From a virus (Duplodnaviria; Heunggongvirae; Uroviricota; Caudoviricetes), in the IMG/VR virus record IMGVR_UViG_2728369188_000007, positions 1 through 4,034 of that record: 4,034 bases of DNA, one strand, 5' to 3'. Positions 1 through 4,034 of the stretch are shown here, in pieces. The notes under the pieces are model-generated. The model did no database searches. It had not been told where the DNA came from and saw nothing but the letters and a program-made list of their open reading frames with translations. Each line of letters begins with the position of its first letter. The first letter of the stretch is position 1. The translations under genes and the position numbers were made by a program.

Positions 1-1053
1 TTACGGGGTAATGCCAACCGCTGCCGCCACTTTGTCGCCACTTGGCAGCGTTGCCAGAGGATTGAAACGGAGCGCCGTTTCCAGATGATCCGGTGCCAGA
101 TGTGCGTAACGCATAGTCATTTTTATATCGTGGTGTCCGAGAATTTTTTGTAAGGCCAGAATGTTTCCACCCGACATCATGAAGTGCGCCGCAAACGTAT
201 GGCGCAGAACGTGTGTGAGTTGACCGCGAGGGAGCACGATAGACGTTTTTTCCATCACGGATAAAAATTGAAAATAGCAGTCTGTGAAGAAATTGAACCC
301 ATCAAGCGCCATGATCTCTTCGTAAAGCTCTTTACTGATAGGGATGCTTCTGTTTTTCTTCCCCTTCGTTCTTACAAAGGTAATTCGGTATTTGGTCACC
401 TGTGAACGAGTAAGATTTACGGCTTCTCGCCAGCGTGCGCCTGTGCTTAAGCATATCTTAACTACCAGTGCCAGAATTGGGTCCTGACGTTTGCAATCAG
501 CCAGTAATTCAACAATCTGCTCATGGGTAAGCCATGCCATCTCTTTTTCTGCGATGGTGAATTTTCGCATGTTCTCCAGTGGGTTCGGATACGACCATTC
601 GCCCAGGCGGGATAGTTCGCTAAAAACACTACTTAGATAGCTTTGCTCCAGGTTAATGGTGACCGGGCTTGCTCCTTTCTTCCATTTCTCGCTGAAGTAG
701 ATCTCACCTGTCAGGCGTTTATCTCGATAGTGGGCAAACATTTTAGAGGTTAGATCAGTTGCAAGGGGATTGCCCAGAGCGTCAACCATCAGCAGCAATT
801 TGTCATAGACATGCTGCCCAGCAGTCAGTGATTTACCATGTAGTTTGAACCATAGCTCAACCACGTCTTTCAGTGTTCGACGATCCACTGATTCACCTAG
901 CCAGGGCTTTGCTTCGGTTTCTTCCATCGTGTGACGCTCAAAAGCCAGTGCTTCGCCTTTGGTGGCGAATTGTTTACGCACACGACGCCCACTACGTCCG
1001 GCGGGGTAACATTCGCAAAGCCATTTTCCTGTGGTGAGTTTTCGTACAGCCAT
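1..1053 (-). CDS. int: Phage tyrosine integrase (P2/186 family), 350 aa from the ATG at 1053
   Basis: The ORF track gives a 376-aa frame 1..1131. The translation carries tyrosine-recombinase motifs: TGAR, HVLRHTF (H-x-x-R box) and the C-terminal LGHHDIKMTMRYAH with the catalytic Tyr. The internal Met (MAVRKLTTGKW...) at 1053 is preferred as start because GGAGGG lies 8 nt upstream on the coding strand (plus-strand ccctcc at 1062-1067); the ATG at 1131 has no such site. Stop TAA is at 1-3. Confidence 0.88.
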   Translation of the reverse strand: MAVRKLTTGKWLCECYPAGRSGRRVRKQFATKGEALAFERHTMEETEAKPWLGESVDRRTLKDVVELWFKLHGKSLTAGQHVYDKLLLMVDALGNPLATDLTSKMFAHYRDKRLTGEIYFSEKWKKGASPVTINLEQSYLSSVFSELSRLGEWSYPNPLENMRKFTIAEKEMAWLTHEQIVELLADCKRQDPILALVVKICLSTGARWREAVNLTRSQVTKYRITFVRTKGKKNRSIPISKELYEEIMALDGFNFFTDCYFQFLSVMEKTSIVLPRGQLTHVLRHTFAAHFMMSGGNILALQKILGHHDIKMTMRYAHLAPDHLETALRFNPLATLPSGDKVAAAVGITP

Positions 1054-1077
1054 AAAAAATGCCCTCCAATAGAGAGC

Positions 1078-1106
1078 ATTTTTACTGTATGTATAACCAG
1101 TGTCAA
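1078..1106 (-). promoter_or_regulatory. Candidate sigma70 promoter directly upstream of int (-35 TTGACA, 17-bp spacer, -10 AAAAAT on the minus strand)
   Basis: Plus-strand tgtcaa at 1101-1106 is a perfect TTGACA on the minus strand; 17 bp downstream in the direction of transcription, plus-strand attttt at 1078-1083 gives AAAAAT (4 of 6 matches to TATAAT). The predicted start would lie a few nt before the int RBS. Sequence-only prediction. Confidence 0.25.
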
Positions 1107-1241
1107 TGTATGAAATCCTGCGACCATACATCTCACTGAAGCCATAATGAAGTAGGCTATTCTTTTTGCTATGTGATCATGTAACTTTTGCGGTTAACCT
1201 GTGGCTCATTTTTATTTTAGGCGCAGATATAAAAGCAAAAG

Positions 1242-1433
1242 TTATCGTGAGTTTTTAGTACAGATTTTTTTGGATTTACTAATAGTTCCATCATTGCAAA
1301 CGAATTTGCCATCAGAGGTACAGTGAGAAACACCTCCCTTTTTCCCTGAGCAGGGATAATTTCTAGCATAGGTAGCTAGTGGGTTTAATAACAAAGAACA
1401 TGACAAAACCACAAAAAATACCTTACCAAGCAT
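1242..1433 (-). CDS. Small predicted secreted peptide: 63-aa precursor with a roughly 23-aa Sec-type signal peptide and a roughly 40-aa cationic, 4-Cys mature part; no recognised family
   Basis: ATG at 1433 is preceded by GGGAGG with a 5-nt spacer (plus-strand cctccc at 1439-1444) and lies 15 nt downstream of the cI stop in the same orientation. N-terminus [23 protein letters not shown] has a basic n-region, a hydrophobic core and a possible cleavage site after ATYA. The remainder [40 protein letters not shown] has 4 Cys, 9 Lys/Arg and 2 Asp. Local GC is about 32-37%. Confidence 0.5.
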
Positions 1434-1448
1434 AATTTCCTCCCGGTA

Positions 1449-2018
1449 CTATTTAACATACTTGACTGTTAAACTTATAATTTTACCAATTATTTCAATG
1501 TCTTCTATCTTACATTCAAAGGCTCTGTTTCCACCCTCGACGAAGATTCTTCCACCGGGTAAACGAGTAATGTCACGGATCGTTATTTCGCCATCAATAC
1601 TTATTACCCATTTACCATCACGTATATCATCAAATTCCTTATCACAAATAAATTCAGAATTATTATCTGTGATTACAAAAAGATTCTTGAATGCCGACGG
1701 TAGAAATTCTCTATCGAAAATATAAAAACCGTCTTCACACAAGGCCCCATCAGATAATACATATTTAGCAACTTCCATAGTATTTGTATTACCTGAAGTT
1801 TGCTTTGAACCATGCCCGGTTGTGAGCCAATTAAGCGAGGTGCCTGTTTCAAGGGCGCACTGGATTACCCATTCTGCTGGGAATGAGTCACGCATGTAGC
1901 GTGTGGCGAGTGTACTTTTAGAGATTCCTAAATGATCGCACAACGCCTGTCGAGTCTTGAATCCATAAGCTTCTACCATGCGCTCTATGGCGCCTCGTCC
2001 GCCTTTCTCCAAATTCAT
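1449..2018 (-). CDS. cI: 186 CI-type immunity repressor (N-terminal HTH DNA-binding domain, C-terminal oligomerisation domain), 189 aa from the ATG at 2018
   Basis: Translation matches the 186 CI pattern as I recall it: EAYGF...L..H..I..S.L..RY.R....CALETG..L.WL.TG.G in the N-terminal part and G.W...I.G.I.IR..T.LPG....V.GG...FEC.I.DI in the C-terminal part. ATG at 2016-2018 has GGAG 5 nt upstream (plus-strand ctcc at 2024-2027). The ORF track extends to a GTG at 2024, which is less likely. Stop TAA is at 1449-1451. Confidence 0.85.
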   Translation of the reverse strand: MNLEKGGRGAIERMVEAYGFKTRQALCDHLGISKSTLATRYMRDSFPAEWVIQCALETGTSLNWLTTGHGSKQTSGNTNTMEVAKYVLSDGALCEDGFYIFDREFLPSAFKNLFVITDNNSEFICDKEFDDIRDGKWVISIDGEITIRDITRLPGGRIFVEGGNRAFECKIEDIEIIGKIISLTVKYVK

Positions 2019-2042
2019 GGTCACTCCAAGTGAACTTTTATC

Positions 2043-2071
2043 TTGACGATTTCACCGTGCGATCGTATGTT
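2043..2071 (+). promoter_or_regulatory. Candidate rightward lytic promoter (pR-like): -35 TTGACG, 17-bp spacer, -10 TATGTT
   Basis: TTGACG at 2043-2048, a 17-nt spacer at 2049-2065 (containing the GATC-bearing palindrome CGATCG), and TATGTT at 2066-2071, lying in the 125-bp divergent region between the cI start and the Apl-like gene. The predicted start near 2078 gives a roughly 66-nt leader to the ATG at 2144. Not experimentally supported. Confidence 0.35.
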
Positions 2072-2143
2072 TATGGTGTTCACAAAATACAAACGATCCG
2101 TATTCGTCCTGATTAATCATCATTAAACGAGGAATGTTGCATC

Positions 2144-2365
2144 ATGAGACCTAACATTTCAATCACTCTTACCACGCCTCATGTGACTATTGAACGCTAT
2201 AGCGAGCTGACAGGGCTATCCATCGATACCATCAATGACATGTTGGCTGATGGACGCCTTATCCGTCACCGTCTGCGCAAAGATAAAAAACGCGAAAAAG
2301 TGATGATCAACATAGCAGCAATGACCGTTGATGCGCTTTCAGAATGCAATCTAAACCTTAATTAG
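2144..2365 (+). CDS. apl: Small HTH protein in the Apl/Cox position (excisionase / lytic-promoter repressor-like), 73 aa
   Basis: First gene of the rightward operon, immediately upstream of the CII-like gene as in 186. Translation has a helix-turn-helix-like segment ([23 protein letters not shown]) followed by a basic tail ([12 protein letters not shown]). RBS GAGGAA lies about 10 nt upstream. The symbol is assigned by synteny, not by recognised sequence identity. Confidence 0.55.
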
Positions 2366-2397
2366 TTCGATTCTGAAATACATCAGAGGCATTGACC

Positions 2398-2424
2398 ATG
2401 TTTGATTACCAAGTTTCCAAACAT
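2398..2424. promoter_or_regulatory. Candidate CII operator: inverted repeat ATGTTTG-N13-CAAACAT (half-site centres 20 bp apart), implying a leftward pE-like establishment promoter just upstream
   Basis: ATGTTTG at 2398-2404 (overlapping the cII start codon) and its exact reverse complement CAAACAT at 2418-2424. As I recall it, 186 CII binds 7-bp ATGTTTG half-sites spaced two helical turns apart next to the -35 of pE. A weak minus-strand -10 (TATTTC, plus-strand gaaata at 2375-2380) lies at a compatible distance. Confidence 0.4.
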
Positions 2425-2907
2425 CCACATTTTGATGAAGCCTGTCGTGCATTTGCACTGCGCCACAATCTGGTGCAACTGGCAGAACGTGCAGGCATGA
2501 ATGTGCAGATTCTGCGGAACAAGCTGAACCCAGCTCAGCCTCATTTATTAACCGCACCAGAAATCTGGCTGCTTACCGATCTGACTGAAGATTCAACGCT
2601 GGTAGATGGTTTTCTGGCACAGATTCATTGTCTGCCATGTGTACCGATTAATGAGGTGGCAAAAGAGAAACTGCCACATTACGTCATGAGTGCAACCGCA
2701 GAGATCGGGCGTGTTGCTGCAGGTGCGGTGTCTGGCGATGTAAAAACCTGTGCCGGTCGTCGTGATGCTATCAGCAGCATTAACTCTGTAACACGACTGA
2801 TGGCGCTGGCGGCTGTTTCATTGCAGGCCCGTTTACAGGCTAATCCTGCGATGGCGAGTGCAGTTGATACCGTGACTGGCCTCGGTGCTTCATTTGGTTT
2901 GCTGTGA
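2398..2907 (+). CDS. cII: 186 CII-type transcriptional activator of lysogenic establishment, 169 aa
   Basis: Translation [24 protein letters not shown]...[17 protein letters not shown]...[26 protein letters not shown]...[22 protein letters not shown] closely matches 186 CII as I recall it, and the 169-aa length from the ATG at 2398 agrees. RBS AGAGG lies 8 nt upstream. The ORF track start at 2392 adds MT and is less likely. Stop TGA is at 2905-2907. Confidence 0.85.
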
Positions 2908-2914
2908 GGTGCTT

Positions 2915-3115
2915 ATGCTGACGAAAGAACCATCATTTGCATCGCTGCTGGTTAAACAAAGCCCGGCAATGCATTACGGTCACGGCTGGATCATGGGGGA
3001 GGATGGTAAACGCTGGCATCCGTGCCGTTCACAAGATGAATTGCTGGCAGAACTATCTACGAAAAAACGGGGGAACAAATGGCTATTGAAGGCACTGCGG
3101 CGACTGTTCCATTAA
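2915..3115 (+). CDS. fil: Small basic protein in the 186 fil position (Fil-like), 66 aa
   Basis: ATG at 2915 with GAGG 5 nt upstream, starting 8 nt after the cII stop. The ORF track begins at an upstream GTG (2885) that overlaps cII and is rejected. The Fil assignment rests on synteny (gene immediately after cII) and a vague recollection of Fil-family proteins. Confidence 0.55.
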   Translation: MLTKEPSFASLLVKQSPAMHYGHGWIMGEDGKRWHPCRSQDELLAELSTKKRGNKWLLKALRRLFH

Positions 3116-3420
3116 GCCCCGGTGAACGCCTGAATGGACTTAATCACATTGCGGAGTTAAGGGCGAAAATTTTTGGCCTGAATATTGAGTCAGAGCTTGA
3201 GCGGTTTATTAAAGATATGCGTGATTCACGGGATATTAATAGCGAACAAAATAAACGGGCACTGGCTGCCATATTCTTTATGGCAAAAATTCCAGCTGAA
3301 CGTCATAGCATCAGCATTAATGAGCTGACCACTGACGAAAAGCGGGAGTTGATTAAAGCAATGAATCATTTTCGTGCAGTGGTGAGCTTATTTCCCAGAC
3401 GGCTAACCATGCCGAATTAA
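3079..3420 (+). CDS. Hypothetical early-region protein, 113 aa
   Basis: ATG at 3079 is preceded by GGGGGA with a 4-nt spacer. The frame overlaps the 3' end of the Fil-like gene by 37 nt in a different frame, and there is no plausible downstream in-frame start before residue 47. Same strand and operon as the flanking genes. Sits where 186 carries dhr, but no motif was recognised. Confidence 0.6.
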   Translation: MAIEGTAATVPLSPGERLNGLNHIAELRAKIFGLNIESELERFIKDMRDSRDINSEQNKRALAAIFFMAKIPAERHSISINELTTDEKRELIKAMNHFRAVVSLFPRRLTMPN

Positions 3421-3487
3421 CCAACTAATGAAATTAATGGCGTAAACCCGCCGGGCATCCCTTTATCTAAATTCAGGAGAATTGATT

Positions 3488-3709
3488 ATGCGTAATATTG
3501 AAACCCTCTCGACCAAAACCGGACCGGATGACGCAGGGCTTAATATTTTACTGACAGAGGCTCGTCTGGAAGAACGCCGGGCAAGGGCTGAAGCAATGGC
3601 AGCTCGCCTTGATAGCCTGGCGTGTCATATCACATCCCGCCAGCTAACCCACGTCGAAGCGGCAGAACTGCTTCGTGTGACTGCTGAAGCAATCCAGAAC
3701 GAAGCGTAG
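3488..3709 (+). CDS. Hypothetical small protein, 73 aa, predicted helical, Ala/Arg/Glu-rich
   Basis: ATG at 3488 with AGGAGA 7 nt upstream (3475-3480). The ORF track begins at a TTG at 3482, which is less likely. Ordinary early-region position between the 113-aa ORF and the TraR-like gene. Confidence 0.6.
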   Translation: MRNIETLSTKTGPDDAGLNILLTEARLEERRARAEAMAARLDSLACHITSRQLTHVEAAELLRVTAEAIQNEA

Positions 3710-3720
3710 GAGATCCACTA

Positions 3721-3948
3721 ATGGCTGATGCAATGGATCTCGTACAGCAGCGCGTTGAAGAAGAACGCCAACGCCATATCCGTGCTGCCCGTGCCAAAAC
3801 GCCGGGCGTGTCCCGCGTGCTTTGCATTGATTGTGAAGCGCCAATTCCGCCAGCACGCCGCCGTGCCATTCCGGGTGTGCAGCTTTGCATTACCTGCCAG
3901 GAAATCGCAGAGCTGAAAGGCAAACATTACAACGGAGGTGCTGTATGA
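3721..3948 (+). CDS. TraR/DksA-family C4 zinc-finger protein, 75 aa
   Basis: Translation contains CIDC-x17-CITC (CxxC-x17-CxxC), the DksA/TraR zinc-finger signature, after a short acidic/basic helical N-terminus. AGGAGA lies 8 nt upstream of the ATG at 3721. Stop TGA at 3946-3948 overlaps the next start codon. Confidence 0.8.
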   Translation: MADAMDLVQQRVEEERQRHIRAARAKTPGVSRVLCIDCEAPIPPARRRAIPGVQLCITCQEIAELKGKHYNGGAV

Positions 3949-4034
3949 GCACCATCCTGAAATGGGGTAATGACTCCAACTTACTGATAGTGTTTTATGT
4001 TCAGATAATGCCCGATGACTTTGTCATGCAGCTC
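3945..4034 (+). CDS. Start of a further rightward gene (first 30 codons, truncated by the window end); product unknown
   Basis: ATG at 3945-3947 overlaps the TraR-like stop (ATGA) and is preceded by GGAGGTG with a 4-nt spacer. The frame stays open to position 4034 (MSTILKWGNDSNLLIVFYVQIMPDDFVMQL...). Too short to appear in the ORF track. Confidence 0.45.
   Translation, partial: MSTILKWGNDSNLLIVFYVQIMPDDFVMQL

Follow-up and report, generated by a model that had tools for sequence, protein, structure and literature searches.

A predicted CII operator at the cII start codon and a putative leftward pE-like promoter in a 186-type Escherichia coli prophage

Genes and promoters of the prophage immunity region

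The window, by which we mean the whole stretch of 4,034 bp of DNA that was analysed, covers the early and immunity region of an Eganvirus-like E. coli prophage, related to P2 and of the 186 type. Its gene order, int-cI-apl-cII-fil, as judged by RefSeq annotation and Pfam matches, is the same as in phage 186. Three genes are read leftward, on the minus strand: the integrase gene int (1-1053; Pfam PF24624 and PF00589, also annotated in RefSeq), which forms the distal end of the leftward operon; an ORF for a hypothetical protein of 63 aa (1242-1433; WP_001513672.1), located between int and cI; and cI itself (1449-2018; Pfam PF07022 and PF16452, 'phage repressor protein CI' in RefSeq), which encodes the immunity repressor and would be the main target of pE.

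The rightward features, on the plus strand, begin with a pR-like early lytic promoter detected by a promoter scan (2043-2071; TTGACG and TATGTT separated by 17 bp), which is convergent with the predicted pE. It is followed by an apl/cox-like gene of 73 aa (2144-2365), called Cox-like or regulator in other records. This gene lies between pR and cII and would be crossed in antisense by the predicted pE transcripts. The cII gene (2398-2907) encodes an activator of 169 aa with a match to Pfam PF06892 (Phage_CP76, E = 4e-42). Downstream of cII are fil, genes carrying DUF5347 and DUF2732, and a TraR/DksA zinc-finger gene, as annotated by RefSeq and Pfam. A search against Rfam gave no match in the window.

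This prophage type is widespread. Positions 1-3966 are 100% identical to prophages of many complete E. coli genomes, and no fewer than 581 complete E. coli genomes have a copy that covers most of the window. In strain RM10740, the identical prophage copy adjoins rcdA. The closest phage records are those of Klebsiella phage KP12 and Escherichia phage vB_EcoM-813R9, with about 94-95% identity.

An inverted repeat at the cII start is shared with the CII operator of phage 186

The 5' end of cII carries two short arms in inverted orientation. The promoter-proximal arm, ATGTTTG (2398-2404), runs from the cII start codon through Phe2 to the first base of Asp3, and the promoter-distal arm, CAAACAT (2418-2424), from the third base of Ser7 through the Lys8 and His9 codons. 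A 13-bp spacer (2405-2417) separates them and places the arm centres, at 2401 and 2421, two helical turns (20 bp) from each other. A first-pass annotation of this DNA had described an exact 7-bp inverted repeat with this spacing, whose first half-site would consist of the cII initiation codon and the next four bases. Both points hold, the ATG at 2398-2400 being the first codon of the 169-aa CII ORF. This start is backed by a GAGG ribosome-binding site (2385-2388) located 9 nt upstream of the ATG. It is also the start used by RefSeq in the identical E. coli copies, and the resulting N-terminus agrees with that of 186 CII.

When the window was searched with the 27-bp pattern, allowing up to two mismatches, this site alone was retrieved, with no second CII-type site. 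At the same tolerance, 0.01 matches are expected per window and any match was obtained in 3 of 200 shuffles, in line with the earlier opinion that a chance origin is unlikely.

The GenBank record of phage 186 (NC_001317) annotates cII at 23435-23944, a CII protein_bind feature ('activate pE') at 23435-23462 and pE at 23400-23462 on the minus strand. The 186 operator sequence is ATGTTTGATTTTCAGGTTTCCAAACAT, that is, ATGTTTG-N13-CAAACAT, and it begins at the cII ATG. The window is identical to it in both half-sites (23435-23441 for the proximal and 23455-23461 for the distal one in 186), in spacer length and in position at the cII ATG, and differs from it at 3 of the 13 spacer bases. The two also share their leftward orientation, with apl and pR ahead of cI and int.

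In 186, CII binds an inverted repeat with half-sites two helical turns apart, centred at -38 and -58 of pE, and it contacts the alpha and sigma subunits; the basal activity of pE is negligible and its induced activity strong (PMC6593788). The half-site centres in the 186 record, 23438 and 23458, agree with a +1 at 23400 and with these published positions. The half-site sequence and spacing of 186, which the first-pass annotation had given, were right, since the NC_001317 site and the published description (PMC6593788) agree with them.

The protein expected to act on this site is conserved as well. CII of the window and CII of 186 share 69% identity over 169 aa, in a gapless alignment. The helix-turn-helix segment AGMNVQ(I/T)LRNKLNP is kept, including V36 and Q37, the substitution of which inactivates 186 CII and is used as the standard cII-null allele (PMC7708051). 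This is in contrast to the two other regulators. The CI proteins share only 33% identity, and the prophage is therefore heteroimmune to 186. Apl of the window (73 aa) can barely be aligned with Apl of 186 (87 aa), showing weak local similarity only. The pE promoter of 186 and its CII operator were reportedly worked out by Neufing et al. in 1996, Shearwin & Egan in 2000 and Murchland et al. in 2014, as cited in PMC7708051 and PMC6593788.

As judged by these comparisons, a heteroimmune prophage has retained the CII-pE connection of 186. The same operator and the same predicted -10 as in the window are also carried by KP12, vB_EcoM-813R9 and similar Eganvirus/Felsduovirus prophages of Enterobacterales. 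KP12 and vB_EcoM-813R9 share 93-95% identity with the window over cI-apl-cII, and their records annotate the genes but not the operator or the promoter.

The half-sites are constrained beyond the protein sequence

To follow the repeat in relatives, cII loci were gathered from IMG/VR and from one genome per species. They span Escherichia, Enterobacter, Citrobacter, Pantoea, Erwinia, Serratia, Xenorhabdus, Photorhabdus, Providencia and Morganella. Patterns of the N-terminal peptide served as seeds in the genome scan, so the search itself accounts for part of the protein-level conservation of MFD...SK, and only statistics of synonymous sites were used as evidence.

The proximal arm ATGTTTG was unvarying in 101 of 101 distinct relatives, and the distal arm followed the consensus (C/T)AAACAN. 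Spacer length was constant in 186 and in the 101 relatives; spacer bases varied, with both synonymous and replacement changes. Distant relatives (Erwinia, Xenorhabdus, Photorhabdus, Providencia, Morganella and some Enterobacteriaceae) carry CAAACAA, CAAACAC or TAAACAG as the distal arm. The change of the last distal base accompanies a His to Gln change at residue 9 (loci L092, L100, L102, L103, L139-L142 and L150-L161). Because this last base varies, what is conserved of the operator is the core TGTTT(G)...(C/T)AAACA and not the complete 7-mer.

Synonymous choice was then read from a codon alignment of 56 representative cII genes differing by more than 5%. Among the 74 conserved degenerate codon columns of these genes, the median fraction of the major codon was 0.55. 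Only two of the 74 columns were invariant: F2 (TTT in 56 of 56) and K8 (AAA in 55 of 55), which are precisely the two codons located entirely within the half-sites. Elsewhere in cII, the same amino acids are encoded more freely, as illustrated by F19 (TTT in 24 genes, TTC in 32) and K42 (AAG in 47, AAA in 9). The AAA codon kept at K8 is thus the one disfavoured at the other Lys positions, which favour AAG. The synonymous invariance of F2 and K8 shows selection acting on the half-sites at the level of nucleic acid, beyond coding.

Taken together, the base-for-base match of the half-sites to the 186 site, the conserved helix-turn-helix of CII and the constraint on the half-sites support the reading of 2398-2424 as the predicted CII operator of a 186-type pE, which would fire leftward with CII-activated transcription into cI and int. 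We give this reading a probability of roughly 0.88. The element would then be the orthologue, in a heteroimmune E. coli prophage, of the known CII operator and pE of 186, with a mechanism that is already known; understanding of the 186 switch is left unchanged. What the comparison adds is that the operator (proximal arm and core) is invariant from Escherichia to Photorhabdus and that it constrains two cII codons.

Position of the -10 element and of the pE start

We examined the region upstream of cII for the core elements of pE. The 60 bp preceding the gene were clustered into 32 types differing by more than 25%, and a simple -10 matrix was used to score all leftward hexamers. In 29 of the 32 types, a leftward -10-like hexamer with more than 3 bits was found 21-23 bp away from the ATG. 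Other windows of three offsets on the minus strand reached at most 7 of 32, and the best window of the plus-strand control also reached 7 of 32. The conserved hexamer has the consensus [C/A/T]A[T/A]AAT, with an A at position 2 and a T at position 6 in all 32 types. In the window, the predicted pE -10 at this place is CAGAAT (2370-2375, minus strand), 22 bp from the cII ATG, with a score of 3.78 bits and agreement with the -10 consensus at 4 of 6 positions only.

In 186, the counterpart of this hexamer is TAAAGT, at -13 to -8 of the annotated +1 and 21 bp from the ATG, compared to 22 bp for CAGAAT in the window. This 186 -10 was deduced from the GenBank coordinates of pE together with the published -38 and -58 positions. 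Another 186 hexamer, TACAAT at 10 bp from the ATG, was considered and rejected, as it cannot fit half-sites at -38 and -58. When the 186 geometry is applied to CAGAAT, transcription would start at about 2362-2363 (minus strand), on the apl stop codon, and the proximal and distal half-sites would be centred at about -38/-39 and -58/-59, respectively. The convergent overlap of pR and pE would then be about 285 bp in the window, compared to about 337 bp in 186.

No conserved -35 was found, and -35 matches were poor in the 12 module types that were inspected. The candidate in the window, TGGTCA, agrees with the consensus at 4 of 6 positions. The window and 186 are alike in having a -10 at about 21-22 bp from the operator without a -35, in keeping with an activator that sits on the -35 region of its promoter. 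A scan of 1950-2500 for consensus sigma-70 promoters returned pR alone and no leftward promoter. This is expected of an activator-dependent promoter lacking a -35, and the scan therefore says little about pE.

The first-pass annotation had placed a weak leftward -10 at GAAATA on the plus strand (2375-2380). The hexamer exists at this position, but we reject it as the -10. Read leftward as TATTTC, it has a score of -1.27 bits, compared to 3.78 for CAGAAT, and a -10-like hexamer at its offset, 17 bp from the ATG, occurs in 0 of the 32 types, against 29 of 32 at 21-23 bp. One could still envisage a real CII operator acting on TATTTC (2380→2375), which has the T-A-T of the -10 consensus and whose leading TAT is found in several related module types. 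The start would in that case lie near 2368 and the half-sites at roughly -33 and -53, a geometry in which the operator is turned by half a helical turn compared to 186 and faces the opposite side of the helix. With these scores, counts and geometry against it, we regard the use of TATTTC as distinctly improbable. The -10 assignment should shift 5 bp leftward, from TATTTC (2380→2375) to CAGAAT (2375→2370). The broader earlier proposal, a leftward pE-like promoter with a transcript antisense to apl that would cross pR and reach cI and int, gains support from the identity with 186, the conserved helix-turn-helix of CII, the constraint on the half-sites and the conserved -10.

Pairing of the two arms in the cII mRNA

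The same two arms could pair in the cII mRNA as a 7-bp hairpin with a 13-nt loop. This hairpin is present in both the minimum-free-energy and the centroid folds of 2380-2440. One possibility is a dual function of the element, in which the DNA serves as the CII operator and the arms pair over the cII start codon in the RNA transcribed from pR. We consider it unlikely. If it were true, one element of 27 nt would set both CII-dependent transcription of cI and the translation rate of CII.

Alternatively, the role of the repeat might be mainly at the RNA level, the hairpin hiding the AUG and limiting CII translation, with DNA binding secondary or absent. The invariant synonymous positions of both arms would suit a constraint on RNA as well as one on DNA. 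However, the fold shows no significant gain in stability over shuffled sequences (z = -1.64, with 12 of 200 shuffles at least as good) and its stem includes two G-C pairs only. The proximal arm being invariant, a covariation test is impossible. Moreover, an RNA model leaves unexplained why a -10 is found on the opposite strand at a fixed distance, and the 186 site is documented as a binding site for the CII protein (NC_001317; PMC6593788). A mainly RNA-based role thus appears very improbable, and the hairpin may be a secondary property of the element.

It is hardly credible that the repeat is a by-product of the N-terminal peptide MFD...SKH, or of chance, without a regulatory role. In favour of this reading, the two arms fall within cII codons and M-F-D-x-x-x-S-K is a conserved peptide. 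Against it, chance would give 0.01 matches per window even when up to two mismatches are tolerated, only F2 and K8 are invariant among the 74 degenerate columns, the K8 codon is disfavoured elsewhere in cII, and the repeat is identical to the characterised 186 operator.

A junction between cII and its upstream module splits the predicted promoter

We return to the CII operator and its predicted pE to consider their position relative to module boundaries. IMG/VR loci with a cII gene at least 99% identical to that of the window carry several unrelated types of upstream apl-cI regions. The mosaic junction falls at the cII start (about 2395-2398 in the window; about 1498-1501 for L002-L081), where similarity stops a few bases from the ATG, and one phage match starts to align only at base 2395. 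A short block around the pE -10 (AGTTCnATTnTG) is common to otherwise dissimilar modules.

An end of similarity near the cII ATG implies that the operator travels with cII, and the -10 and the start with the exchangeable cI-apl module. In published trees, CII follows the structural genes, and cI, apl and int do not (PMC11126057); an operator that moves with cII agrees with these trees. Sequence comparison thus points to pE as a split promoter, with its operator inside cII coding sequence and its predicted -10, at a fixed 21-23 bp, contributed by no fewer than 32 distinct immunity modules. If this is true, immunity modules could be swapped while the establishment circuit stays unbroken. The interest of the element resides mainly in this promoter split across a module junction and in the constraint at the codon level.

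Proposed mechanism and comparison with lambda

In 186, CII produced from pR transcripts recruits RNA polymerase to the otherwise silent pE, the transcript of which runs antisense via apl and pR into cI and int, yields the first repressor and integrase, and interferes with pR (PMC6593788, PMC7708051). By analogy, rightward transcription from pR after infection would yield Apl and CII in the present prophage. CII would bind both half-sites on the same face of the DNA, two helical turns apart, at about -38 and -58. As pE would have no usable -35, bound CII would bring RNA polymerase to the weak -10 CAGAAT. Transcription would start near 2362-2363 and cross apl and pR in antisense before reaching cI, the small ORF and int. 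The pE transcript would provide the first burst of repressor and integrase for the establishment of lysogeny, and would interfere with pR. For this prophage, CII binding, CII-dependent activation, the exact start and the biological role are all inferred from the 186 system. Sequence alone makes it possible to annotate with confidence the operator, the -10 and the predicted start of the circuit that establishes lysogeny in a prophage family very common in E. coli.

The same logic is found in lambda, where an unstable activator from the early rightward operon, CII, acts on a leftward promoter without a -35, pRE, to supply CI. The lambda pRE transcript is antisense to the cro-equivalent gene, like the predicted pE transcript. 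The lambda CII site lies within cII codons, like the operator at the 5' end of cII in the window. In contrast to the window, with its inverted repeat spanning two helical turns, lambda CII uses TTGC-N6-TTGC direct repeats flanking the -35, with a spacing of one turn. Lambda CII also activates pI and paQ. The protein encoded in the window matches PF06892 (CP76) only and the repeat differs from that of lambda in sequence and in orientation; neither is of the lambda type, and the resemblance is one of function. The CII proteins of lambda and 186 are functionally analogous but unrelated (PMC7708051).

CI sites, a pL candidate and other features of the window

An imperfect palindrome of 18 nt (GATCGTATGTTTATGGTG / CACAAAATACAAACGATC) at 2061-2098 overlaps the -10 of pR and is a probable CI operator. 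The sequence AACGATCCGT at its right edge (2092-2101) has a perfect inverted copy of 10 nt within cI, at 1575-1584, which could be a distal CI site of the FL type. As a 10-nt motif with mismatches allowed, AACGATCCGT is statistically not unusual. According to the 186 record, the FR CI site of that phage, ATTCAC-N5-GTGAAT, lies over the pE -10. No FR-like CI site was seen near pE in the window as judged by the absence of a AACGATCCGT copy there, AACGATCCGT serving as a stand-in motif with the heteroimmune CI of this prophage.

A possible pL-like promoter for the maintenance of cI expression was noticed by eye at 2134-2162 on the minus strand, with TTGAAA (2162→2157), a 17-bp spacer and CAACAT (2139→2134). 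Like pL of 186, it is directed towards pR, and the consensus scan was silent on it.

The last 70 or so bases of the window (3963-4034) are the end, a terminal inverted repeat, of an IS1 element, and match about 72,000 places across E. coli genomes annotated as IS1-like elements. The insertion breaks the prophage just past the TraR/DksA gene, where intact copies have a DNA adenine methylase gene (5445-6302 in L162). Owing to this interruption, the present prophage copy may be defective.

Finally, int and cI abut in phage 186 with no gene between them, in contrast to the window, where the additional 63-aa ORF is found. Its product, which has no match in Pfam, shows a hydrophobic, signal-peptide-like N-terminus and several cysteines. 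The ORF lies within the predicted pL and pE transcripts and may therefore be expressed in lysogens; it may represent a moron.
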